A stretch of 21,360 bases of DNA. Origin: Spirochaetales bacterium (GTDB lineage: Bacteria > Spirochaetota > Spirochaetia > JABEVK01). The number at the start of each line of letters is the position of its first letter. Position 1 is the stretch's first letter. Shown piece after piece: positions 743-14,909 of the stretch. The stretch covers positions 1 through 21,360 of the forward strand of contig JBAXAI010000053.1 in assembly GCA_037142615.1 (NCBI GenBank), in the 5' to 3' direction. Below the pieces are notes generated by a model, which was given only the letters and a program-made list of their open reading frames with translations, was not told where the DNA came from and did not search any database. Both the position numbers and the translations under genes were made by a program.

Positions 743-1108
743 TCAAAGATTCGTATAGTGTCGCTCCTGGTGGGCACGCCAGAAGTCGATCCCATCGAGC
801 AACATTGCCAACTGCTCGCTCGAGATCTTTCTGATCTCTCCGACGTCTTTGGGCCACGGGAACCGGTCTTCTTCCAGCCGCTTCTGCCACAGACAAAAAC
901 CGTTGCGGTCCCAGTACAGAATCTTGAGCCGGTCGCGGCTGGGGCCGGCGAACAAGTACAGGCTGCCGTCAGGGGTAAGCCGAAGGCGTCCCCCGGGGTC
1001 ATGCCCGAGTTGGTCACGCACAAGCGCTGCCAAGCCGTTGATTTGCTTGCGCATATCCGTGGTGCCAGGCCGGACAAACACCCGAAGCTGACTCCAGTCG
1101 CGGATCAC
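743..1108 (-). CDS. tnpB: IS66 accessory protein TnpB
   Basis: Motifs TDMRKQINGL, LYLF..RDRLKILYWDRNGFCLWQKRLEEDRFPWP, QLAMLLDGID. Confidence 0.95.
   Translation of the reverse strand: MIRDWSQLRVFVRPGTTDMRKQINGLAALVRDQLGHDPGGRLRLTPDGSLYLFAGPSRDRLKILYWDRNGFCLWQKRLEEDRFPWPKDVGEIRKISSEQLAMLLDGIDFWRAHQERHYTNL
973..993. repeat. 21-bp hairpin element, copy 2 (in-frame insertion in tnpB)
   Basis: GGGTAAGCCGAAGGCGTCCCC, 20/21 identical to copy 1. Removing it gives HDPADGSLYLF, the usual DPxxGxLxxF spacing. Confidence 0.85.
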
Positions 1109-1407
1109 AACGACCCCAACACCTTCGCCACACGACCCAAGTGCTCCAGCGGCCAGGAAGGTGGTGCGTCAATCCGGATTCTATTGGGCAGGTGGATCCT
1201 CAAGACCGCCGAGGGCGACAAGAGCTCTGTGACTTCCACCATCGAGGAATCACCGGCGTCGGTGGCCGCCAAACGGCGACGCCAATTCCCCAGCGACGCT
1301 ACAGAAACTCCGTAGTCCGCAGCGACCGCCCTGTCGGACATGCCCCTCGCTGCCTTTGCATCCAAAAACTGTTGCCACTCGATCGCCGTTCTCCGTGTTC
1401 GTTTCAT
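1105..1407 (-). CDS. tnpA: IS66 accessory protein TnpA (HTH)
   Basis: 100 aa; motif W...GMS..AVAADYGVSVASLGNWRRRL; AAGGAG RBS; GTGA overlap with tnpB. Confidence 0.88.
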   Translation of the reverse strand: MKRTRRTAIEWQQFLDAKAARGMSDRAVAADYGVSVASLGNWRRRLAATDAGDSSMVEVTELLSPSAVLRIHLPNRIRIDAPPSWPLEHLGRVAKVLGSL

Positions 1408-2002: not shown

Positions 2003-3133
2003 CTACTTGATCTCCAAGGCTTTGACGAACCCGCCACTTCTGTTGTTGTGGTCGTAGATGATCAGCGGCAAATCCACCTTCGGGTTACAAGATCGCCCGA
2101 TTTCTACGGCCATCGTATGCGGAACCGCAGGAAATACGTGGACTGTCGCATTGGGCCCGTGTCTGGACCTGATTTGGGCGAGAGCCCCTCGGTAGACACG
2201 ACTAAACTCGTCCAGTTGCTCCCTGGTTCGCAGAAAGTGCACCGATGGATTGCTCGCCCCGATTTCCCATATTGGGACATCCTGCCCGAGGACCGAAGTA
2301 ACCCTCTCTGGATCAATAGCTGCGGAAACAGAAAGGATGAGTGCTATTTCCTTTGCCTCAGCCCCCTCTCCGGGAGGCGCCTGGACACTTAGCGATCCGC
2401 CAGTGTCCCGATACCATGTCCATTGATCCGGGTTCCTATGTCGCTGGTACAGCTCGGTAAGAAACAAGTCGGAGAGAAGATGCCCGAGATACGCCAACAG
2501 TGGTTGCGGAGCAAGCGCGAAGACAGAAAGGTGCGCCTTTCGATTCTCAAGAAGTGGACGCACCAGTCTTTCGAATTGGCGAGTCAGATTTCGGCTCTCT
2601 TCCTCCCAAAACCCCGGTTCGTGGTCTCGGGACTCTGACCAGTGCAAGCCCATTTGAATTGGCTCACTTGCAGCTGGATAGCGCCCACTGGAAACCACTG
2701 CTTCAAAAGCCGACACTCCGTTTAGCGGGGAGGCCCGATCCCCAATGTTGGCACCATACAGCACGACAAATGACTGGAGGTCCGGTCCGATACCGGTGAC
2801 TCGTTCGATGCGTTCCTCATGGCTCTTTTTGTAGGCCCTAAGGACCTGAACGCCATACAGTTCGACTTGCTCTCGATCGATCAAGCGATGATGTGTGTCA
2901 CAGAGCAACATGAGGTTCGAAAGATCCGTGGAAAGCTTCGGAGAGAGTTCGGGGTCACCCCGCGGTCCCCCTGGCTTGTCAGCAACAATGTGCGCGACAT
3001 AGGAACTGTTTCCTCGAAACTGGGTCAGTCCGTCTCGATACAGAATCGCGTTGCATCCGGGAAACTCACACCGGCCGCTGGCCTGCGCCCACAAAGCCTT
3101 AACCGTGAACTCTGGTATTTTGGTATTGCTCAC
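2003..3133 (-). CDS. cap5: CBASS effector, HNH endonuclease-SAVED (Cap5-type)
   Basis: N-terminal GRCEFPGC..AHIVADKPGGPRG..NLMLLCDTHHRLID (Zn-HNH). SAVED motifs SVFALAPQPLLAYLG, LYQRHR..WTW, VHVFPAVP..AVEIGR. GTG start at 3133 with AAGGAGG RBS, overlapping the upstream stop. Confidence 0.92.
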   Translation of the reverse strand: MSNTKIPEFTVKALWAQASGRCEFPGCNAILYRDGLTQFRGNSSYVAHIVADKPGGPRGDPELSPKLSTDLSNLMLLCDTHHRLIDREQVELYGVQVLRAYKKSHEERIERVTGIGPDLQSFVVLYGANIGDRASPLNGVSAFEAVVSSGRYPAASEPIQMGLHWSESRDHEPGFWEEESRNLTRQFERLVRPLLENRKAHLSVFALAPQPLLAYLGHLLSDLFLTELYQRHRNPDQWTWYRDTGGSLSVQAPPGEGAEAKEIALILSVSAAIDPERVTSVLGQDVPIWEIGASNPSVHFLRTREQLDEFSRVYRGALAQIRSRHGPNATVHVFPAVPHTMAVEIGRSCNPKVDLPLIIYDHNNRSGGFVKALEIK

Positions 3134-3732
3134 GCTGGCCTCCTTTGATGTGCTGCTTGGAGACGCGGCAGACAACAGAGTTTGTACTTCTTGCCGCTTC
3201 CGCAATAACAACGGGCGTTTCTGCCAAGTCGGGAGACTAGTTTCATCGTGTCGTGAATCTTCTCGTCAATGCCATTCTGGTGAGAGTATTCTCCCCAGGG
3301 GGCTTTCTCGTTGAACGTTTCCCAGTATGCGTGCCAAGCAAAGTAACTGAAGACAACTTCGCGTACAAATCTGACGACAGACATCCTTTGCACTTCAATT
3401 GGAAGAAAGATTCCAACACAGCAGGACCCATCGCCGTTAACATGCGCGTCCAGACACATCGCTAGCTGACGTTCCTTGATAACCGTTTCGAGCTTTCCAC
3501 CAACCTCCCAAACCTTAAAGAGGCCGCAGAGGTCTCGCTGATTCAGGTCAATCAGAACACAAAAACAGCCCGAGAAACGTCGGTACCTTCGGTCGGGGAT
3601 CCCGTTCAAATGGAGTTGTGCCCCATCGAAGTGAGCGTCGAACGACATCTCTCCTCGGAGCGTGTTCGATGCTCCTTCCAAGTAAAGATCGGGAAAGGCC
3701 TCCTGGATGGAGGCCAGTTCGTTCGCGGTCAT
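3130..3732 (-). CDS. CBASS ancillary protein: prokaryotic E2-like domain plus C-terminal SEC-C metal-binding motif
   Basis: HVNGDGSCC resembles the E2 HxN..G.xC catalytic strand; PWGEYSH; GRNARCYCGSGKKYKLCC is a SEC-C motif. Lies between the CD-NTase and effector. Start is ATG 3732 or GTG 3741. Confidence 0.75.
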   Translation of the reverse strand: MTANELASIQEAFPDLYLEGASNTLRGEMSFDAHFDGAQLHLNGIPDRRYRRFSGCFCVLIDLNQRDLCGLFKVWEVGGKLETVIKERQLAMCLDAHVNGDGSCCVGIFLPIEVQRMSVVRFVREVVFSYFAWHAYWETFNEKAPWGEYSHQNGIDEKIHDTMKLVSRLGRNARCYCGSGKKYKLCCLPRLQAAHQRRPA

Positions 3733-3737
3733 GTCTA

Positions 3738-4670
3738 TCACCAATGAGCGAATGGCTTGTGAGGGATCGTCGTCTGGGAGCGCTCCGAGGAGCCTTGGAT
3801 GATCGTGCCGAATGAGTCCCCGAACACCTTCCTCCACTTTCGAATACTCTCGTTCCGATCCTGTTCGTTGTAGGCCGCATCGACTTTCTCGCGATAGTCA
3901 TTCACTTTGTCCCGAAAGTTACTGTACTTTGACCGTTCCCAATACCGATTGAAGTTCTCCCATGGTAGCACCGGATTGTTGACGGCTGGCATCGACGGGC
4001 TGGCCTGTAACTTATCGTCCAACCGATCCATTAGGATCTTGAAGGCGGTCGCGAGATCGTCAAAGTTGTCTCCACCAACACAGTTTCCCAACAAAGTTGA
4101 CAATAGTATTGATTTGACGGAGAAGTTGCTACTTCGGTCCCGAAGGTACTTGAACAGGCGAGTCGCCTTCTTGAGATGACTGTTCGTAACTCGGTTCTTA
4201 TCATTGAACCAGTCGCGAAAACCAGTGCCATCAGTCTCTTCGAACGAATCGGTATCGTAGTTGCAGATATAAACCCGGCCGTCCTTCTCGATTGCAGGAA
4301 CGAGATCGAGGTGGAAGTCGGCCTTGTAGTCAATGGTCATGCACCTGGTTTTTCGTCGAACGATGTCTTGGTAGTTGCCATTCTTTTGGAAGACTGCTAG
4401 CAGCGACGTGATGTAGTCCCGCGCGGTCCAGCTCGCCTGTTCCGCCATATAGACCAAGAGATCAGCGTCGAACTCGTCGGTATCCCTAACGGGTTTGATG
4501 ATTGTCCCCAATGCGTAGGAACCTTGACGTTCAGTCTTACGGTAACCATCCAGGCAGTCCTTCAGGAGTCGACTGATGATTTCAGTCTTCTCGTCCAAGG
4601 TTTTGATCCTGGAAGGATTGAGGTTGACCTCTTCGTTCAGAAAGGTCTGGAAGTCATTGTGGTGCTTCAT
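3738..4670 (-). CDS. CBASS cyclic oligonucleotide synthase (CD-NTase/SMODS nucleotidyltransferase)
   Basis: Motifs QGSYALGTIIKP..EFDADL, KTRCMTIDY..FHLDLVP, NPVLPWENFN, WRKVFGDSF. ATG 4670 with GGAG RBS; adjacent to a SAVED effector. Confidence 0.93.
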   Translation of the reverse strand: MKHHNDFQTFLNEEVNLNPSRIKTLDEKTEIISRLLKDCLDGYRKTERQGSYALGTIIKPVRDTDEFDADLLVYMAEQASWTARDYITSLLAVFQKNGNYQDIVRRKTRCMTIDYKADFHLDLVPAIEKDGRVYICNYDTDSFEETDGTGFRDWFNDKNRVTNSHLKKATRLFKYLRDRSSNFSVKSILLSTLLGNCVGGDNFDDLATAFKILMDRLDDKLQASPSMPAVNNPVLPWENFNRYWERSKYSNFRDKVNDYREKVDAAYNEQDRNESIRKWRKVFGDSFGTIIQGSSERSQTTIPHKPFAHW

Positions 4671-4711
4671 GATCAGCTCCAAATGCTCAGTGCAGGGTTA
4701 TCCCCGGACTC

Positions 4712-4741
4712 TTGACAAGAGGAAGCTATCGTTCGTAAGCT
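4712..4741 (+). promoter_or_regulatory. Putative promoter antisense to the CBASS leader
   Basis: TTGACA-N18-TAAGCT. Confidence 0.45.
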
Positions 4742-4747
4742 AATTTG

Positions 4748-4846
4748 CCACGCCAAACGAAGATAGCCTTTGGACCTTCCGGTCCCCGGGTTGTTTGGTT
4801 CGACCCTGTTACCTGGTTGCCGCCGGGGCAGGGTCGTTTTCTTTTC
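4748..4846 (+). ncRNA. Candidate small antisense RNA of about 100 nt
   Basis: Lies between the 4712 promoter and a terminator-like hairpin. Contains CCAAAC/GTTTGG pairing that encloses GGACC-TTCC-GGTCC. Confidence 0.3.
4801..4846 (+). terminator. Intrinsic terminator-like hairpin
   Basis: CGACCCTG...CAGGGTCG stem followed by TTTTCTTTT. Confidence 0.55.
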
Positions 4847-4848
4847 AC

Positions 4849-4878
4849 AGTGTACTGATTTCTGTCAACATTCGTCAA
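4849..4878 (-). promoter_or_regulatory. Putative sigma70 promoter of the CBASS operon
   Basis: Minus strand TTGACG-N18-TACACT, about 180 nt upstream of the CD-NTase ATG. Confidence 0.5.
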
Positions 4879-4915
4879 GCAATGACCGGCCTATTTCATC
4901 AAAGAAGCTTTTTTC

Positions 4916-4951
4916 ATTGACAAACTTGGATAAATGATAGATATTGTCAAT
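4916..4951. promoter_or_regulatory. Inverted repeat/operator overlapping the promoter of the HTH-peptidase gene
   Basis: ATTGACAA-N20-TTGTCAAT; the left arm is a perfect -35; AAGGAG RBS at 4955-4960. Confidence 0.6.
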
Positions 4952-4971
4952 CTCAAGGAGAAGAAACGACG

Positions 4972-6150
4972 ATGATGGGAGATAGACTTCGACAACGGCG
5001 GCTTGCCGTGGGGATGTCACTACAGCAGGTCGCGGACGCTCTGATCGCAGCTGGCACGCAGATTACCCGTGCCACCCTATCAAAGTACGAGCTAGAGCAA
5101 AGTTCACCGAATGCTCTAGTACTTCGCGAGATCGCAAAAGTCTTCGGCGTGAAGACCGACTACTTTTTTTCTGAGACCCGTACAGAAGTTCAGTGGTTTG
5201 CCTACCGTAAACGGTCCAGCATGTCGCAAGCCGACCAGGCAAGCCTCCAAGCTAGCGCTATCGAAGCCTTGGAACGACGGGTCAAGGCTGAGGAGCGATG
5301 CGGTGTGGAACCCACGGGGCTTGGCGAACAGAATAGGGAACAGTGCGAAACATTTGACCAAGCCGAAGACTTGGCAATGGGGTTGCGTGATCACTGGGGA
5401 CTAGACCTGCAACCGATTGGGTCTCTGATCGACCTCCTTGAGTCCAAGGGCTTTGTGATGATACCCCTTGCCACAGGTGAGCTCAAGTTTGATGGGTTGT
5501 CGGGACTGTTGAACGGCGTTCGATCAGTCATCGTGTACAAGGAAGATGTAGTCACGGACAGACTTCGATTCACAGTTGCCCATGAGCTGGCCCACCACTT
5601 TTTGAAAGCTGATGATCCAAGTGTCGAGGAGAAGTTGGCCCACCGATTTGCCGCCGCGTTCCTGATGCCTCAAAAGCGATTGCGCCACCATTTGGGATCA
5701 AATCGGACCCGCCTCAGGTTGGAAGAACTCGTCCTCTTGAAGGAACAGTATGGGCTAAGCCTTCACGCTCTCGTTTACCGTGCCGGCGATGCTGGCATTA
5801 TTTCCGACCGGACTCGTACGGAGTTGTTCCAGTTTTTCGGTCGCATGGGTATGCGGAGGGCTGAGCCGGGCCGCTACAACGTGACCGAGAAACCGGACGA
5901 ACTCAAGCGCATTTTGCTGAAAGGTGTTGCCGAGGGCCAGATCACCGAGGCCCAGGCAACCGAGCTCGACCCCGAGTTTCCTGCCGAAAAAGAGAGGAGC
6001 CAGACCATGCCTACTTGGGATCTCAGAGAACTCCTGGCGCTTCCGCCAGAAGAACGCGACAAGGTTCTTGAAGACGCGGCGGCCTCGGCCGCGTCACTAT
6101 ACAATCACGGTGGTCCTTTGGGCGATTTGGAAGTACTGGATATTCAATGA
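4972..6150 (+). CDS. Xre-family HTH fused to ImmA/IrrE (DUF955) Zn-metallopeptidase, with an extra 47-aa C-terminal tail
   Basis: LRQRRLAVGMSLQQVA..ITRATLSKYE (HTH_3); RFTVAHELAH (HExxH) and EEKLAHRFAAAFLMP. Confidence 0.92.
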   Translation: MMGDRLRQRRLAVGMSLQQVADALIAAGTQITRATLSKYELEQSSPNALVLREIAKVFGVKTDYFFSETRTEVQWFAYRKRSSMSQADQASLQASAIEALERRVKAEERCGVEPTGLGEQNREQCETFDQAEDLAMGLRDHWGLDLQPIGSLIDLLESKGFVMIPLATGELKFDGLSGLLNGVRSVIVYKEDVVTDRLRFTVAHELAHHFLKADDPSVEEKLAHRFAAAFLMPQKRLRHHLGSNRTRLRLEELVLLKEQYGLSLHALVYRAGDAGIISDRTRTELFQFFGRMGMRRAEPGRYNVTEKPDELKRILLKGVAEGQITEAQATELDPEFPAEKERSQTMPTWDLRELLALPPEERDKVLEDAAASAASLYNHGGPLGDLEVLDIQ

Positions 6151-6503
6151 CCGACACTCTCCCCAGACGCGGCGAAATCTGGAATGTGAATTTTGATCCA
6201 ACAATCGGAGCAGAAATCAAAAAGCTCCGTCCTGCGTTGGTCATTTCTCCCGATAGCATCGGTAAACTTCCGCTCTGCATCGTTGTCCCAGTAACAAACT
6301 GGGCCGACTCATTCGAGGCCTTGCCGTGGATCGTCAGACTGAGACCAACGCGTGAAAATGGTCTTTCCAAGACTTCTGGAGCAGATTGCTTCCAGGTCAA
6401 ATCGGTTGCCCGAGAACGGTTCACTGAGAAGTCGGGCAGCGTAACGGCGGAAGAACTGGATCTCGTCGTGAGCGCGATCCAGCTCTGCATTGGTGTCTAC
6501 TGA
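6147..6503 (+). CDS. mazF: PemK/MazF-family endoribonuclease toxin
   Basis: Motifs PRRGEIWNVNFDPTIGAEIKKLRPALVIS, VVPVT, ENGLSKTSGADCFQVKSV. ATGA overlap with the upstream gene. Confidence 0.93.
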   Translation: MTDTLPRRGEIWNVNFDPTIGAEIKKLRPALVISPDSIGKLPLCIVVPVTNWADSFEALPWIVRLRPTRENGLSKTSGADCFQVKSVARERFTEKSGSVTAEELDLVVSAIQLCIGVY

Positions 6504-6677: not shown

Positions 6678-7010
6678 ATGGTTGAACCTCCGCTTTCCAG
6701 TTTGTTGACACCGGAGAAAGCCTGCATCTTCAGACTGATCCACCGTGACAACGTACCTTGGGTCTTGGCAAATGGTCTCCATAGTGCCAGCAGCGCCACC
6801 AAGTCACCACACTGGGTCCCGATAGGAAATCGGGAGCTTATCAAGAAAAGAGCAAATTGGTAGGTTCCCGAGAAGTTCGAACAGTATCAGGCCGAGGCCT
6901 TGGTGCACGGCAGTTGTCCTGTGTCCGCACTGATGAGGCTTGCGTGTTTCGACCTTTCGGTCGAAACTACCCCGCGGGATCAGATCGAACAGGCAGGGCT
7001 TACCCTGCCT
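6678..7010 (+). pseudogene. darT: DarT (DUF4433) DNA ADP-ribosyltransferase, internally deleted with an in-frame stop
   Basis: N-part LTPEKACIFRLIHRDNVPWVLANGLH..IGNRELIKKRA, then TAG at 6861-6863, then in the same frame the C-part PEKFEQYQAEALVHGSCPVSAL. The central YVPFYF/F.FTD region is missing and no darG follows. Confidence 0.85.
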
Positions 7011-7301
7011 ATGGTCTTTCCAAAAACCGCCATCGATACAAATGGACTCATCGAACTGGCAAAGTCGGTTCAGGTACTTGAGTTGTACTTGTTTGGCTCT
7101 GTACTACGCGAGGATTTTCACCAAGAGAGTGACATCGACATTCTCATCGAGTTCGACCGCGAGACCTACTCGAACTTCATCCGGCTCGCATACTTCCATG
7201 AGGACAACCTGGAACGAACCGTGGACCTGCTAACTTCCGACAGCCTCAGTCCCTATATTGGCCCCACGATACTCCGTGAGGTGGAGTATGTTTCACTCTG
7301 A
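7011..7301 (+). CDS. Minimal nucleotidyltransferase (MNT) antitoxin
   Basis: LFGSVLREDFHQESDIDILIEF (GS-x10-DxD) and VDLLT..LSPYI; 96 aa; start uncertain. Confidence 0.8.
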   Translation: MVFPKTAIDTNGLIELAKSVQVLELYLFGSVLREDFHQESDIDILIEFDRETYSNFIRLAYFHEDNLERTVDLLTSDSLSPYIGPTILREVEYVSL

Positions 7302-7450
7302 CAAAGAGCTGTTTCAGCACATTCTTGACGAGATCTCCTTCCTCAAGAGTGAGTCCGCAGTGCTCACCAAGGAGCAGTTCCTCGCCGGAGATCACCCTCC
7401 GGTACTCAAACGTCGAGTGGCGAAACATAGCGGGAATGCGTGACAAGTGA
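7288..7450 (+). pseudogene. DUF86/HEPN toxin remnant
   Basis: MFHSDKELFQHILDEI..KEQFL, then a frameshifted PEITLRYSNVEWRNIAGMRDK*. The middle is deleted and the RxxxxH motif is cut before the His. Confidence 0.8.
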
Positions 7451-7591
7451 GGCAAGTCGCTGACGACGTTGAGTACCCTTCTTGCCGCAAATTGGGTTAC
7501 TGATGCATAGGCCGAACGGTCTGCAGGTTGCCAGATTGACGCTCCGCGCCAAGGAACAAATCGGACATTCCGAAGTTCCAGAAAGGGTAGC

Positions 7592-7623
7592 TTGGCGAAT
7601 CTTGTGAATGGCATACAATATGC
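7592..7623 (+). promoter_or_regulatory. vapBC promoter with palindromic operator
   Basis: TTGGCG-N16-TACAAT; GCATA-caa-TATGC overlaps the -10; AGGAG RBS follows. Confidence 0.55.
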
Positions 7624-7638
7624 ACAGGAGTTCAAAAA

Positions 7639-7830
7639 ATGCGAACTACGCTAGACCTTCCCGAGTCTCTCTTGCAAGAGGCAATGTCACTTACTCACAC
7701 ACAGACCAAAACAGAAGTGATTAAGTTGGCTTTGAGCAATCTGATCCAGAAAGAAAAGATTCAAGAATTGAAGTCATTTTTTGGAAGACTTGATCTCGAA
7801 ATCGACTTGAACGAGCTTCGAAGTAGATGA
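7639..7830 (+). CDS. vapB: VapB-family antitoxin
   Basis: MRTTLDLPESLLQEAM...TKTEVIKLAL...LDLEIDLNELR; ATGA overlap with the PIN remnant. Confidence 0.88.
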   Translation: MRTTLDLPESLLQEAMSLTHTQTKTEVIKLALSNLIQKEKIQELKSFFGRLDLEIDLNELRSR

Positions 7831-8036
7831 GTCTCGTTCTTGTCGAGATCATCCGAATGCAGGTCAGGAATTTCGAGGCAGGAAACAACCATGTCGGAAT
7901 ACCCGACCTGGTGATTGCTCAGAGCGCGATGAAGAATGATTTGATTCTTTTTGAGAATGACAATCACTTCCAGGCCATGAAGAAGATTTTTGGATTGGAA
8001 CTGCTGAGGAAGGAAGACCAAGAATCTCATATCTAG
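7827..8036 (+). pseudogene. vapC: VapC/PIN toxin with internal deletion
   Basis: MSLVLV is joined directly to the C-terminal half (GIPDLVIAQSAM..LFENDNHF). The first catalytic Asp (DTS) and central helices are absent; 69 aa versus about 130. Confidence 0.8.
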
Positions 8037-8137: not shown

Positions 8138-9283
8138 ATGATTCCCCGTTTGGCCGAAGCTCGGATCCGGTCGCTGGCACGCCAGTTTCCTATTGTGGTG
8201 GTCACGGGTCCCAGGCAGTCGGGCAAGACGACCTTGGTGCGTGCTCTGGCGCCCGAAAAGCCCTACTACAACCTAGAGCGCCCCGATGTGCGCCAGCGCG
8301 TGGCCGACGATCCGCAGGGGTTCTTGGCCAGTTGCGCCGAGCGTGGGGCCATCGTGGACGAGGCGCAGCGCTTCCCGGAGCTGGGCTCGTGGTTGCAGGC
8401 CTATGTCGACGAGCACCCCGGTGCAGGGCAGTTCTACCTTACCGGGAGTAACCAGCCGCTGCTGCGGACGCAAGTGACGCAATCGCTGGCGGGCCGTGCG
8501 GCACTCGTCAATCTGCTCCCGCTGACGGCCGGCGAACTAAGCTCCGCTGGCCTCGCCAATTCCCTCACCAACACTTTCCTGGCCAAGGGCTTCTATCCTC
8601 CGCTGTACGACAAGCCGTTTGTCGCTGCCGATTGGCTGGCGCAGTATGTGCAGACGTACTTGGAAAAAGACCTGGTGCTCCTGGCCCAGCTCAAGGATCT
8701 GTCGGCCTTTCAGCGGTTCCTGAAACTGTGCGCTGGTCGGACAGGGCAGGTGCTCAACCTGTCGGACCTGGCTCGCGACGCGGATGTGTCGCACACCACA
8801 GCCAAAAACTGGCTGTCACTCCTCGAAGCCTCGTTCCTGGTGTTCTTGCTGCCGCCGTGGCACGCCAACTACCAGAAGCGCCTGGTGAAAAGCCCCAAAC
8901 TGTACTTTTACGATGTGGGCCTGGCCGGTTGGTTGACCGGCATCCGTTCACCTGAGCAATGGGACAACCACCCCCTGCGCGGAGCGTTTTTTGAGACTTT
9001 GGTGGTGGCCGACTTGGTCAAAACCTCGCTGGCGAGCGCCGACCCTTCGCAGTGGTACTTCTGGTCCTCACCCTCGGGCCTGGAAGTCGACCTGGTGGAA
9101 CAGCGCGGACCCGAAGTCTGGGCCCACGAAATCAAGTCGAGCGCGACGTTCAAGCCCGAACACGTCAAAGGGCTGCTCGCTTGGAGCGAACTGTCGGGCG
9201 TACCGCCCCACCGCCTGTGCCTGCACAACGACGGCAACGAGCGGTTGGAGTTCCGTGGGGTGAAGGTTGGTCCGTGGAAGTGA
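8138..9283 (+). CDS. AAA_14 ATPase with DUF4143 (PD-(D/E)xK-like) C-terminus
   Basis: Motifs GPRQSGKTT, IVDEAQR, LTGS, SLAGR, KSPKLYFYDVGL, EVDLV..EIKS. Confidence 0.92.
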   Translation: MIPRLAEARIRSLARQFPIVVVTGPRQSGKTTLVRALAPEKPYYNLERPDVRQRVADDPQGFLASCAERGAIVDEAQRFPELGSWLQAYVDEHPGAGQFYLTGSNQPLLRTQVTQSLAGRAALVNLLPLTAGELSSAGLANSLTNTFLAKGFYPPLYDKPFVAADWLAQYVQTYLEKDLVLLAQLKDLSAFQRFLKLCAGRTGQVLNLSDLARDADVSHTTAKNWLSLLEASFLVFLLPPWHANYQKRLVKSPKLYFYDVGLAGWLTGIRSPEQWDNHPLRGAFFETLVVADLVKTSLASADPSQWYFWSSPSGLEVDLVEQRGPEVWAHEIKSSATFKPEHVKGLLAWSELSGVPPHRLCLHNDGNERLEFRGVKVGPWK

Positions 9284-9285
9284 GG

Positions 9286-10638
9286 CTAGCGGCCGCATCC
9301 CTCCAGCAATTCCAACAAGCGCCCCGCAAAATACAGGGGCAGTGAAACGAGCTCGGTAGTTCCCGTTTCGGAAACCAGGCTTTGTGTGGACGGAAGGTTG
9401 AGATCGAACCTCACAGCCACCGGGGGCTTCTTGGCACCCACGAACTGCTGAAGCGACTTGAGGGTTCCTGCCTTGCCTGACTTCACCTCGATCGGGACAA
9501 CCTGTGTTCCTTGGGCGATCAGAAAATCGAGCTCGGCGTTGTTGGAGCGTCCTTCGCGCAGCCAATAGTGAAGCTCGGGCAGCTGCTTGCCACCAAACCG
9601 ACCCAGCAACTCTTGCCCCACAAACTGCTCGGCCAGGGCGCCCTCGTTGAGCAGTCTGCGTTCATCCAGCGACTGCGTCTGTGGCCAGGTCATGCCGAGA
9701 ACCAGGCTGACCAAGCCGATGTCGAGAAACAGCAACTTGAACGTCGACGAGTCTTGACCCGCACCCAGAGGGACCCCCGAACCGTCAGAGTGGTACACCG
9801 GAGTACAGATGCGGGCCTTGCACAGCAGGTCGAGGGCCGTGCGCACCTCGCCGCTTCGGTCGTCGGGGGAAAGGTGTGTGAACTTCACTTTGCGACCCAA
9901 CTGGGCAGGCACCGTGCGGAAGATCCGTTGCAAGCGCGCCAGCTGAGCCTGGCGGGCGTACTTGGCAAAGTCGTCGACATAGGTGTCGAGGATGGTCCGC
10001 TGAACCTCGGCCACGCGATCGAACAGTTTGGTATCGAGCCACGTCTGTACCGCTTCGGGCATTCCTCCCACGATCAGAAACTCTCGTTGCCTGTGCAACA
10101 GCGCGTTGTGACGGCTCACGGGCAGGGGGTCGCCCATCTTCCAGTCAAGGTAGAACCGGTGAAGTTCGGCATCGGACGCCAAAAGGAACTCCGCAAACGA
10201 GAGCGGCCCCAGGTGAAGGTAGGTGATGCGTCCCACCGGCATCGAAAACCTGTGGTCAGCCAACGCAAACTCGAGGAGCGAGCCCGCAGCGACGACCGCA
10301 AGTTCGGGCATGTCTTCAAAAAAGTACCTGAGGGCAGCGATGGCCTCGGGTACCGCCTGGATTTCGTCAAGAAACAGCAGCGCAGAACGCTTTTCGCGGA
10401 TTTCGCCAGCCAGACCCGCCAGTTCGCCCAGGATGCGGTTCAGATCACCGCTGGCAAACGCGTCGCGGAGGAACAGGTGCCGCTCGAGGTTCACCTCGTG
10501 GAGCGCCAAGCCTTTGTCCCGGGCGAAAAGCCGCACCAGAGTCGACTTGCCGACTTGCCGTGCTCCCCGGAGCACCAGAGGCTTGCGAGGGCTCGATCGA
10601 AACCAGAGGTCCAGCTGTTTCTGCGCATCCCTCTCCAT
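9286..10638 (-). CDS. AAA_14 ATPase with DUF4143 domain (450-aa subtype)
   Basis: Motifs GARQVGKST, FLDEIQ, AAGSLL, SMPVGR, VGGMPE, FLDIGL, AELDFL..PIEVKSG. Confidence 0.92.
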   Translation of the reverse strand: MERDAQKQLDLWFRSSPRKPLVLRGARQVGKSTLVRLFARDKGLALHEVNLERHLFLRDAFASGDLNRILGELAGLAGEIREKRSALLFLDEIQAVPEAIAALRYFFEDMPELAVVAAGSLLEFALADHRFSMPVGRITYLHLGPLSFAEFLLASDAELHRFYLDWKMGDPLPVSRHNALLHRQREFLIVGGMPEAVQTWLDTKLFDRVAEVQRTILDTYVDDFAKYARQAQLARLQRIFRTVPAQLGRKVKFTHLSPDDRSGEVRTALDLLCKARICTPVYHSDGSGVPLGAGQDSSTFKLLFLDIGLVSLVLGMTWPQTQSLDERRLLNEGALAEQFVGQELLGRFGGKQLPELHYWLREGRSNNAELDFLIAQGTQVVPIEVKSGKAGTLKSLQQFVGAKKPPVAVRFDLNLPSTQSLVSETGTTELVSLPLYFAGRLLELLEGCGR

Positions 10639-10711: not shown

Positions 10712-10745
10712 TTGACCCACGGGCAGTGCGCACGTAATATGTGCA
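10712..10745 (+). promoter_or_regulatory. TA promoter with operator palindrome, leaderless start
   Basis: TTGACC-N17-TAATAT-N6-ATG(10747); GCAC-N7-GTGC spans the -10. Confidence 0.6.
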
Positions 10746-10746
10746 T

Positions 10747-10971
10747 ATGACCAACATCACTTTGTCGATCGACGAGGAACTCCTGAAGCTGGGCCGCGAA
10801 TATGCTCGCACGCAAAACCTGTCGTTCAACGTCTTGGTTCGCAGGTTGGTGGAACAGACGGTGACCAAGAAGGACTCCCAATGGCTCGATGCGACGTTTG
10901 AATACATCGACGAAAATGTGAAATCCGCCGAGGGCATCACTTGGAAGCGGGAAGACTTATACCGTGGCTAA
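10747..10971 (+). CDS. Ribbon-helix-helix antitoxin (DUF6364-like)
   Basis: MTNITLSIDEELLKLGREYA...SFNVLVRRL...WKREDLY; overlaps the PIN gene. Confidence 0.85.
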   Translation: MTNITLSIDEELLKLGREYARTQNLSFNVLVRRLVEQTVTKKDSQWLDATFEYIDENVKSAEGITWKREDLYRG

Positions 10972-11386
10972 AGTGTTCCTCGACACGAACCTGCTTATCC
11001 ATACGGTAGACACGAAGGATGCCGAGAAACATGAACGTTCCCGGGAGCTGCTCAGGGACGTTTCTGCGAAACACCTACCCGTGATTTCCACCCAGGTCTT
11101 GCAGGAGTTCTACAACGGCCTGACAACGAAGCTGAAGGTCGACAAGATCGTGGCGAAGAACATTCTTCACGGGTACCGCAACCTCGAGATTGTCTCGGCA
11201 GACCTTGCCATGATTGAGCAGGCTGTCGACATCAGCATGTTGTTTCAACTGTCATTCTGGGATTCGCTGATTGTCGCCGCCGCAGAACAGGCCAACTGCT
11301 CGGTTCTGTTCACGGAAGACCTGAACGACGGACAGAGCATCCGTGGAGTCAGGGTCGTGAATCCGTTCAAGACGCCACAGACATGA
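10964..11386 (+). CDS. vapC: PIN-domain (VapC) toxin, intact
   Basis: Motifs VFLDTNLL, ISTQVLQEF, LSFWDSLIVAAA, LFTEDL..VVNPF. Confidence 0.93.
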   Translation: MAKVFLDTNLLIHTVDTKDAEKHERSRELLRDVSAKHLPVISTQVLQEFYNGLTTKLKVDKIVAKNILHGYRNLEIVSADLAMIEQAVDISMLFQLSFWDSLIVAAAEQANCSVLFTEDLNDGQSIRGVRVVNPFKTPQT

Positions 11387-14134: not shown

Positions 14135-14443
14135 ATGAGGCTTTCTTCCAACCAACGAACCGCCATTGTCGAGTCGGTTCGCGAATCCTTTGGCCCCGAG
14201 GCGAAAGTCTGGCTGTTTGGGTCGCGGATCGACGATACCAAACGGGGCGGCGACATTGATCTGCTGGTTGCCGCTAAGGCCGAGCCGGGGCAGGAAGTTC
14301 GGCAGAAACTCCGGGCTCTTGGACTGATTCAACGCAAAATCGGCGAGCAGAAGATCGACCTCGTCGTGACCGACGGAAGCCCCGATTGCGAGGCGCTCCT
14401 GATCACGCGCAATGCAAGGGCCGTGGGGGTGCCGCTTGAATGA
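14135..14443 (+). CDS. MNT nucleotidyltransferase antitoxin
   Basis: Motifs VWLFGSRIDDTKRGGDIDLLV and GEQKIDLV. Confidence 0.9.
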   Translation: MRLSSNQRTAIVESVRESFGPEAKVWLFGSRIDDTKRGGDIDLLVAAKAEPGQEVRQKLRALGLIQRKIGEQKIDLVVTDGSPDCEALLITRNARAVGVPLE

Positions 14444-14909
14444 GACCTTGAAGGCGACGCTCCAGTCGGCGATCTCCGAAAACGATTCTCACCTAGGTAG
14501 GATGCGCTGGTCGAGAACTGCACTTTCAGGTCAGTTTCCTCTCGACGTTGACAAGCTCGCAGGGCTTTCCGACGAAGAACGGGCCATCCTGGACCAGTTT
14601 CTCTACCGGTTCACCAAGATCCAGGACTCAATGGGAACCCGTCTGTTGCCCGCCCTCTATCACTTGCTCGAAGGCGACGACAATCCGCGACCCTTCCTCG
14701 ACACTCTCAACCGGCTCGAACAACTGGGCGTCGTGACAAGTCAAGAATCGTGGCAGAAGTTCCGGGACCTCCGCAACACGATCGCTCACGATTACCCCGA
14801 AACGGTGGCGAAGACCATCGAGACCATCAACACTCTCTTTGACGACGCCAACGAGTTCTATCAGCTCTATACGACCGCTCGAGAGTCTGCCCTAGAGAGG
14901 CTCTCGTGA
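14436..14909 (+). CDS. HEPN-domain toxin (partner of MNT)
   Basis: Motifs LDQFLYRFTKIQDSMG, FLDTLNRLEQLG and RDLRNTIAHDYP (RxxxxH followed by DY). Probable TTG start at 14436. Confidence 0.87.
   Translation: MNETLKATLQSAISENDSHLGRMRWSRTALSGQFPLDVDKLAGLSDEERAILDQFLYRFTKIQDSMGTRLLPALYHLLEGDDNPRPFLDTLNRLEQLGVVTSQESWQKFRDLRNTIAHDYPETVAKTIETINTLFDDANEFYQLYTTARESALERLS

Follow-up and report, generated by a model that had tools for sequence, protein, structure and literature searches.

An HTH–peptidase protein coupled to MazF and facing a CBASS operon: a candidate damage-responsive defence unit in a Spirochaetales contig

Cyclic-oligonucleotide-based antiphage signalling systems (CBASS) kill their host, and a central question is how they are silenced and when they are released. 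A locus on contig JBAXAI010000053.1 of a Spirochaetales bacterium (assembly GCA_037142615.1) raises this question for a controller that may itself hold a toxin. The window, i.e. the whole stretch of 21,360 nucleotides analysed here, contains a CBASS operon and, divergent from it, the gene for a 392-residue protein with a helix-turn-helix (HTH) domain and a zinc peptidase domain; a mazF toxin gene follows directly. An earlier note on this DNA had proposed that one polypeptide combines repressor, sensor protease and antitoxin, so that its cleavage would both induce CBASS and free MazF. Our analysis leans, by a modest measure, towards an account in which this protein, MazF and CBASS form one damage-responsive unit. 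The individual steps of the account differ in strength.

In Pfam, the 392-residue protein is matched by HTH_3 (residues 6–65, E 1.2e-10) and Peptidase_M78 (residues 183–270, E 1.8e-10). It consists of an Xre-type HTH (residues 1–67), a short motif Y78-R79-K80 (positions 5203–5211), the M78 peptidase, a helical domain extending to about residue 332, and a tail (residues 333–392). The HELAH motif of the peptidase occupies residues 204–208 (5581–5595), with E220 further downstream; Pfam gives no match to a GAF domain in this protein. Fourteen RmrA models of PADLOC match it, the best with E 4.6e-44 over residues 2–313, and the capP (E 2.2e-14, residues 178–271 only) and capH (E 1.9e-8) models do so weakly. 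An AlphaFold2 (AF2) model, built from an alignment of 34 homologues, has a predicted local distance difference test score (pLDDT) of 88.2 and a predicted template modelling score (pTM) of 0.80. When searched with Foldseek, its peptidase part resembles IrrE (3dti), CapP (7t5t) and PprI (8sln), and its N-terminus the DNA-binding domain of ImmR and the N-terminal domain of CapH. The top sequence-profile match in the PDB is 9vzy_A, an HTH protein of 393 residues (E 3.5e-10); from the positions of the HExxH motif and a loop cysteine, we infer that this is VapB52 of Mycobacterium tuberculosis.

Relatives were surveyed in contigs from one genome per species. The best 80 of at least 294 relatives, at 30–38% identity, were taken as a sample, and 79 of these have a callable open reading frame (ORF). 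In a separate set of 113 homologue clusters, 69 cover 93% or more of the query. H204, E205, H208 and E220 are each kept in all 80 family members. The same is true of R79; it is preceded by Phe in 53 and Tyr in 27 proteins, and followed by Lys in 74. There is no cysteine between H208 and E220 in the window protein, which therefore lacks a cysteine switch.

The three genes on the opposite strand have family matches to a CD-NTase, an E2-like regulator and a Cap5-like effector (Table 1). The CD-NTase translation contains QGSYALG, DEFDAD and HLDLVP, corresponding to the GS, DxD and downstream Asp motifs. Its start is most likely ATG 4670 rather than TTG 4682, because a Shine–Dalgarno sequence (GGAG) lies 7 nt upstream of the former and PADLOC aligns the longer ORF from its residue 5 onwards. 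Counted from ATG 4670, the intergenic region to the regulator gene spans 4671–4971 (301 bp). For the E2-like gene, the longest ORF reaches 3837 and the PADLOC alignment begins at residue 37; ATG 3732 is the probable start. In Cap5, the HNH motif is visible in the translation, the PADLOC alignment runs from residue 28, and the true start is probably downstream of TTG 3211. Neither an E1 nor a JAB gene was seen in the ORFs adjoining the CBASS genes. Judged on its gene content, with a cyclase, an E2-only regulator and an effector, this is a short-form type II CBASS.

On the other side, the ATG of mazF overlaps the TGA of the regulator gene as ATGA (6147–6150). All residues that are invariant in the PemK/MazF family are kept, and the protein matches no PADLOC model. 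A separate mazE-like ORF with an AbrB or ribbon-helix-helix (RHH) domain was not found at the regulator–mazF locus; a candidate hidden mazE in an alternative frame (ORF 5924–6196) was ruled out, as it has no Pfam match at E≤0.1. In these respects, the architecture described in the earlier note, namely an Xre-HTH/HExxH peptidase fusion divergent from an intact CBASS operon and translationally coupled to an intact MazF with no mazE, holds throughout, apart from the corrected cyclase start.

What could keep MazF in check without a MazE is suggested by the tail. Beyond position 332, all ten MazF-linked proteins (those of the window, of the metagenomic contig L087 and of eight survey loci) have 57–72 residues, ending in an acidic, aromatic stretch. 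In 70 others, the same region has a median length of 20 residues (range 13–31, with a single exception of 63). A complex of residues 296–392 with two copies of MazF was predicted in three runs and three controls, with an own alignment for each partner. The runs gave ipSAE interface scores of 0.81, 0.81 and 0.80 (best of the three controls, 0.00), to be read against a pass mark that, in calibration, 58 of 80 solved complexes attain, as do 2 of 110 mismatched pairs, and that is only roughly valid for own alignments and a two-copy chain. The pLDDT of the partner is 72–73, and the runs share at least 90% of their contacts. These predicted contacts involve residues 348–392, which face conserved residues in the groove, contributed by both MazF copies. 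Upstream sequence is available for six of the MazF-type survey loci, where aminotransferases, anthranilate synthase, a major facilitator superfamily transporter, a terminase or an AbiEii gene lie nearby; the neighbours are housekeeping, prophage or other toxin–antitoxin (TA) genes. No mazE ORF was called between regulator and mazF in these six loci, and no CD-NTase was found there. Judged from these stand-alone loci, the regulator–MazF pair is self-sufficient. Together with such pairs, the tail comparison and the complex prediction make it very probable that the 392-residue protein is the antitoxin of MazF.

It could instead be argued that the protein is purely a fused CapH–CapP transcription regulator and that MazF is held by an antitoxin encoded elsewhere in the genome. 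The 4.27-Mb genome does hold 12 PemK/MazF-family matches above the Pfam cut-off, and the capH and capP models of PADLOC do match. Such a division of labour is nevertheless very improbable, given the ATGA coupling to mazF, the tail that accompanies MazF in ten out of ten cases, a predicted complex that passes the mark, and the MazF-type pairs standing alone in six unrelated genomes.

If the protein is an antitoxin, is it also tied to CBASS? MazF lies directly downstream in 8 of the 79 surveyed loci. A PIN-type protein of about 165 residues takes this place in 62 of the 79 (57 called as adjacent, 5 with ORF calls running into the upstream gene); among 57 downstream ORFs tested against Pfam, 28 match PIN and 9 DUF3368. 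An iterated profile detected CD-NTase ORFs in 17 of the 80 loci, one of them a fragment. Every one lies upstream on the opposite strand, and none of the 80 loci has a downstream or co-directional CD-NTase. The 82 upstream ORFs compared with Pfam or PADLOC include SMODS (14), TRIP13/AAA (7), HORMA (2), Cap17-like (2), patatin (2) and ThiF (2) families, so several CBASS types are involved. All 17 CBASS-linked loci fall in the PIN-type clade, and 16 have a PIN gene downstream; at the remaining one, L044, none was called.

A tree was obtained by a quick IQ-TREE search, from which the short row L045 was left out and to which 17 database proteins without genomic context were added. All MazF-linked proteins fall in a single clade of 25 rows (Shimodaira–Hasegawa-like approximate likelihood ratio test, SH-aLRT, 84; inner nodes 90 and 97). 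Of the 13 rows in one subclade (support 95), 12 have CBASS and the thirteenth is on a short contig. On this tree, the CBASS label changes at least five times on well-supported branches.

The window arrangement recurs in L087, in which the regulator is 84% identical and the same cyclase, E2, Cap5 and overlapping MazF are present. In 60-nt windows, the identity between the two copies leaves background (0.3–0.45) at about 2000, the cap5 stop, and returns to it at about 6505, the mazF stop; the flanks available in L087 are short (about 350 and 200 bp). Because L087 keeps all five genes, their arrangement in the window is no chance juxtaposition, and the genes at 2003–6503 behave as one mobile defence unit. 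A third homologue of the 392-residue protein (72% identical) is on a contig equal in length to that of a MazF 77% identical to the one here, which hints at the same pairing.

These observations bear on a competing explanation, in which the regulator and MazF form an autonomous TA or abortive-infection module of the RosmerTA kind that merely lies beside CBASS, regulating only its own operon, with CBASS served by an independent promoter and leader. MazF-type pairs elsewhere do occur alone among unrelated genes, and the window is a dense TA and defence island (MNT, VapB, PIN, DarT fragment, IS66). Chance neighbourhood does not readily account for the recurrence of the five-gene unit in another context, where homology runs out at the outermost stop codons, for CD-NTase genes that are always head-to-head in 17 of 80 loci, or for several independent origins of the CBASS label on the tree. 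Moreover, CapH and CapP, in the same position, regulate CBASS according to the accessible part of Lau et al. 2022 (10.1101/2022.04.27.489752). We regard a merely adjacent module as unlikely, although by no means negligible.

The distribution of the unit points to transfer between genomes. There is no match in 11 genomes of the same taxonomic family; across the phylum, matches occur in 13 of 401 genomes, counting the own. Outside the own genome, 13 places in the phylum match only up to residue 308–350, 10 of these 13 loci have PIN downstream, and the tail-bearing type was found in none of the 401 genomes besides the own. Since matches are rare in the phylum and absent from the family, the unit was acquired horizontally. 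Viral contigs yield 237 relatives of the regulator. Among the best 80 of these 237, PIN is a neighbour of 14, CD-NTase of one (downstream and convergent) and MazF of none; no relative of the cyclase was found in viral contigs. In plasmids, the sole DNA match covers 62 nt of MazF. The plasmid protein search returns 204 records, all below 60% identity, and the 25 rows listed match residues 1–332 only; in an annotated Bradyrhizobium example, cyclase and PIN genes are absent from the gene table.

Horizontal acquisition would also suit a role mainly in addiction, with the pair keeping the CBASS island stable: segregants that lose the unit would be killed by the longer-lived MazF thus set free, and the peptidase would do no more than tune antitoxin turnover. 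Type II TA pairs classically act in this manner, and IS66 genes adjoin the unit. This idea leaves the invariant catalytic and cleavage motifs and the fixed divergent orientation to CBASS unexplained. As a full explanation it is improbable; it is, however, compatible with the account of a damage-responsive unit and does not exclude it.

How might the HTH domain act on the two divergent operons? The promoter-like site of the regulator–mazF operon is TTGACA-17-GATATT (-35 at 4917–4922, -10 at 4940–4945; consensus scan). A GTTGAC..GTCAAC repeat, with arms 18–24 nt apart, stands just upstream of nine of the ten MazF-type genes, namely those of the window, L087, L001, L002, L003, L010, L020, L028 and L050; it is absent from L019. 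In L087, both arms are changed symmetrically relative to the window (TTGACAT..ATGTCAA). On the CBASS side, L087 keeps both hexamers of the promoter-like site as TTGACG / TAnnnT, and a GTTGACA half-site in its spacer (4863–4869) is conserved in L087 as well. Four of the 13 TTGACA sites of the 21-kb window fall in the 301-bp intergenic region. In the PIN- and CBASS-linked clade, 10 of the 11 regions inspected hold a similar repeat whose half-sites read GTTTACA, and 9 of 16 loci have one more half-site towards CBASS. In some of them, the whole intergenic region measures just 82–103 bp, and the operator must therefore overlap both divergent promoters. From these sites, we infer that the 392-residue protein represses the CBASS promoter; that CBASS is among the promoters derepressed by loss of the HTH domain is rather more probable than the contrary. 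Seen from the side of an autonomous module, the full operator stands at the regulator's own promoter, and the CBASS promoter holds one half-site only.

Two side observations concern these sites. A TTTCAAG(A/G)GG-like motif recurs about 10 nt upstream of the left half-site of the GGTTTACA operator in many PIN- and CBASS-linked loci (L018, L025, L027, L029, L038, L048, L049 and L070); in the window, GTCAAGCA stands in a similar position (4873–4880). L044 (positions 7935–7979), which is CBASS-linked, falls in the PIN-type clade and has no downstream toxin ORF called, shows the GTTGACA operator form, elsewhere characteristic of the MazF clade.

The most conserved part of the unit is not a gene but a block of about 140 nt in the intergenic region. 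At positions 4713–4832, identity to L087 is 0.90–0.92 in 60-nt windows versus 0.55–0.88 in genes. The -10-like hexamer of its promoter-like site reads TAAGCT in the window and TAAGGT in L087. The block folds with -45.6 kcal/mol on the plus strand (z -3.7; minus strand, z -3.1). The two-sequence consensus fold has 29 pairs (5 of them G-U) at -38.5 kcal/mol on the plus strand, with two-sided changes in 0 of the 29 pairs, and 25 pairs at -29.3 kcal/mol on the minus strand. Rfam gives no match at the gathering score over the whole window, nor at E≤10 over 4650–5000; ARAGORN finds no tRNA or tmRNA; and an exact 25-nt search of viral contigs for the block found nothing. A small protein was rejected (TTG-started ORFs only, none with ATG), as was a repeat (the block is single-copy in the genome). 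It may correspond to a plus-strand RNA of about 100 nt (about 4748–4846), antisense to the CBASS leader, or to a structured 5' leader of CBASS. A long conserved leader suggests separate RNA-level control of CBASS, as the adjacent-module explanation would have it.

The following sequence of events is proposed for the damage-responsive unit. At rest, the HTH would bind the operator over its own promoter, as the conservation of the site suggests, and probably also the extra half-site in the divergent CBASS promoter; the acidic tail (about residues 348–392) is predicted to lie across the MazF dimer and to block it in the manner of the MazE tail. When a phage infects or DNA is damaged, single-stranded DNA (ssDNA) would activate the zinc peptidase, leading to a cut at Y78|R79, by analogy with VapB52, CapP/CapH and IrrE/DdrO. 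Damage-triggered self-cleavage before R79 is slightly favoured on these analogies. The cut would detach the DNA-binding domain and derepress both the CBASS and the regulator–mazF operons. MazF might then be released by a second cut, by lost avidity or by turnover of the cleaved antitoxin. As a lead only, a hydrophobic residue and then Arg or Lys immediately precede the conserved helix in 7 of 10 MazF-type tails (L351-R352 in the window), which would allow such a second cut. Release of MazF by any route is possible but doubtful.

This scheme has to be weighed against several points. Apart from the rough calibration of the complex score, solved MazE–MazF complexes exist, and the score may therefore partly reflect likeness to them. 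With 12 PemK-family matches in the genome, antitoxins acting in trans have some small probability. None of the eight MazF-type survey loci has a CD-NTase, all 17 CBASS-linked loci being PIN-type, so that within the MazF clade the link to CBASS comes from the window and L087. The tree comes from a quick search. TTGACA is also the sigma-70 -35 consensus, and the extra sites may thus belong to promoters instead of operators; for the CBASS promoter itself there is a consensus match only. Finally, with the cut between HTH and peptidase and MazF on the far C-terminus, the cut alone need not free MazF.

For the proposals of the earlier note, the outcome is mixed. The neighbourhood search links homologues both to CBASS (17 of 80) and to mazF (8 of 79), with the two together only in the window and L087; a functional link to CBASS gains from the conserved five-gene unit and the divergent CD-NTase genes, and loses from the narrow base within the MazF clade. 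That one polypeptide serves as repressor, protease and antitoxin is supported by the conservation of the operator, by catalytic and cleavage motifs that are invariant in the family, by the tail specific to MazF-linked proteins, by the complex prediction and by the VapB52 precedent. The part that found no support is the freeing of MazF by cleavage, as the [F/Y]-R site lies between HTH and peptidase and the predicted MazF-binding part at the far C-terminus.

Why would this matter? In the survey, fused CapH–CapP-type controllers beside CBASS usually bear a toxin (16 of 17 loci with PIN), and regulator and TA system would be one device. A broader proposal is that a whole class of CBASS controllers is toxin-bearing: one self-cleaving HTH–peptidase gates CBASS and holds an RNase, the damage signal arms both, and in the lineage of the window an antisense RNA of about 100 nt adds a third layer. 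This generalisation is speculative and, at present, unlikely to hold in full. If true, one damage signal would arm both a fast arrest at the RNA level and a slower suicide pathway based on nucleotide signalling; a phage that destroys or titrates the regulator would also set off the toxin; and the RNase held would mostly be PIN, and in this clade MazF, by means of a grafted MazE-like tail. The MazF clade, in which the tail accompanies MazF, offers a clean natural experiment on the grafting of an antitoxin domain, a defined operator is available for the question of dual promoter control, and the intergenic block may be a new RNA that regulates CBASS.

Judging from family matches, the surroundings of the unit are a TA and defence island beside IS66 genes (Table 1). 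The IS66-family element occupies 21–1407 on the minus strand and is separated from the cap5 end by about 600 bp. With 12 PemK/MazF matches in its 4.27 Mb, the organism as a whole is unusually TA-rich.

Table 1. Coordinates of genes and other features in the window, with the evidence for each.
Feature	Positions	Strand	Evidence or remark
cap5-like CBASS effector, HNH endonuclease and SAVED sensor	2003–3211	-	Pfam SAVED E 7.5e-46; PADLOC effector/endonuclease E 1.6e-135
E2-like CBASS regulator (Cap2-short type), C-terminal SEC-C zinc motif	3130–3732	-	PADLOC E2 E 2e-18; Pfam SEC-C E 1.6e-7
CD-NTase (cyclic-oligonucleotide synthase), 310 aa	3738–4670	-	Pfam SMODS E 3.7e-30; PADLOC cyclase E 2.8e-113
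Most conserved block of the unit, about 140 nt	4706–4850	+	TTGACA-18-TAAGCT, two stem-loops, terminator-like hairpin then T-run
CBASS promoter-like site TTGACG-18-TACACT	4849–4878	-	Consensus scan; L087 comparison
Putative operator ATTGACAA-N20-TTGTCAAT (GTTGACA-N~20-TGTCAAC)	4916–4951	.	Overlaps regulator–mazF promoter; inverted-repeat and conservation comparison
HTH–peptidase regulator/antitoxin (predicted), 392 aa	4972–6150	+	Pfam HTH_3, Peptidase_M78; PADLOC; AF2; Foldseek
C-terminal tail (residues 333–392), predicted MazF-neutralising segment	5968–6147	+	Tail comparison; complex prediction
MazF/PemK-family endoribonuclease toxin, 118 aa	6147–6503	+	Pfam PemK_toxin E 5.4e-26, positions 1–107 of 109
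IS66 transposase ORF, 222 aa	21–689	-	Stops as DDE domain begins
TnpB_IS66 gene	743–1108	-	E 9e-33
IS66 HTH orf1-like gene	1105–1407	-	
DarT remnant-like ORF, 101 aa	within 6558–7635		Matches first 45 DarT positions only, E 1.9e-4
MNT-type nucleotidyltransferase	6900–7301		
ORF without family label	7246–7635	-	
VapB	7639–7830		Followed by short PIN-like remnant, 7827–8036
Two convergent AAA_14/DUF4143 ATPases	8138–9283 and 9286–10638	+ and -	
RHH-like ORF plus PIN	10741–11386		
MNT/HEPN-like pair	14135–14909		Inside FtsX/LolA-like transporter cluster

How far is this arrangement foreshadowed by known systems? The closest parallel at CBASS loci is CapH with CapP, whose genes precede CBASS in divergent orientation and code for an Xre-type HTH repressor and an M78/IrrE peptidase. 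Lau et al. 2022 (10.1101/2022.04.27.489752) showed that the pair regulates CBASS, with cleavage N-terminal to an Arg; they list 15 CBASS systems with an apparent CapH–CapP fusion and, in a drawing of a DISARM locus, show a vapC-like gene next to such a fusion. The domain order of CapP is peptidase, central HTH and C-terminal GAF, in contrast to HTH, peptidase, helical domain and tail in the window protein; the latter also lacks the cysteine switch, and its gene is translationally coupled to that of a toxin, a kind of partner whose role the accessible text of Lau et al. does not discuss.

In architecture, the window protein resembles VapB52, the antitoxin of VapBC52 from M. tuberculosis (NAR 2026, PMC13273310), which has about 393 residues in three domains (HTH, IrrE-type HExxH peptidase and a C-terminal domain). 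VapB52 cleaves itself, triggered by ssDNA, at an FR motif at the HTH–peptidase junction, which probably frees the PIN toxin bound to the N-terminal domain. The two share the domain layout and the conserved aromatic–Arg junction motif (Y78-R79 in the window), and 9vzy_A makes them distant homologues. VapB52 has a cysteine switch, unlike the window protein, and its N-terminal domain binds a PIN tRNase as partner, whereas the window has MazF and a predicted added C-terminal tail (348–392), a comparison for which the complex prediction covered residues 296–392 only. The accessible text of PMC13273310 contains no mention of CBASS beside VapBC52.

RosmerTA (RmrT/RmrA; Millman et al. 2022 preprint, Ernits et al. 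2023) likewise pairs an HTH and Zn-peptidase antitoxin with interchangeable toxins and has an anti-phage role; the ImmA antitoxin hub and swapped toxins were described with antitoxins of this type. RmrA provides the best PADLOC match of the window protein. RmrT toxins are of unknown or membrane-active kinds, whereas the neighbour here is MazF and no RmrT is present, and no C-terminal MazF-binding tail is described for RmrA in the accessible texts. Earlier still, Makarova et al. 2009 (PMC2701414) reported Xre–COG2856 fusions with PIN or RelE toxins. As in the window, a fused HTH–metalloprotease shares an operon with a type II toxin, and 62 of the 79 survey loci are of the PIN kind; MazF is not among the COG2856 partners tabulated in the accessible part of PMC2701414, and a link to CBASS was unknowable in 2009.

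Taken together, these precedents show that the novelty claimed in the earlier note was overstated: HTH–peptidase antitoxins, swapped toxins and CapH–CapP fusions at CBASS were already known (Lau et al. 2022; RosmerTA; Xre–COG2856), as was the self-cleavage of VapB52. In the accessible literature, we found neither MazF as partner of an HTH–M78 fusion (the NetFlax datasets might list a MazF node linked to the ImmA hub) nor a C-terminal MazF-binding tail on an HTH–peptidase. We likewise found no discussion of CBASS-linked fusions as usually toxin-bearing (Table S1 of Lau et al. might list such toxin genes) and no five-gene unit of CD-NTase, E2 and Cap5 with regulator and MazF.

Two further systems supply the remaining elements. 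As in MazE–MazF, the prediction has an acidic, aromatic peptide from a C-terminus lie across the groove of the MazF dimer and block it; the difference is that the window has no MazE gene and no AbrB or RHH domain, the tail being grafted on an HTH–peptidase. ImmR/ImmA and DdrO/IrrE provide the protease-gated Xre repressor that responds to DNA damage, and the fold is similar to IrrE plus the ImmR DNA-binding domain; unlike the window protein, each comprises two proteins, controls mobile-element or repair genes and has no toxin. Set beside all of these, the pairing with MazF and the five-gene package look new, and each part is of a known kind.

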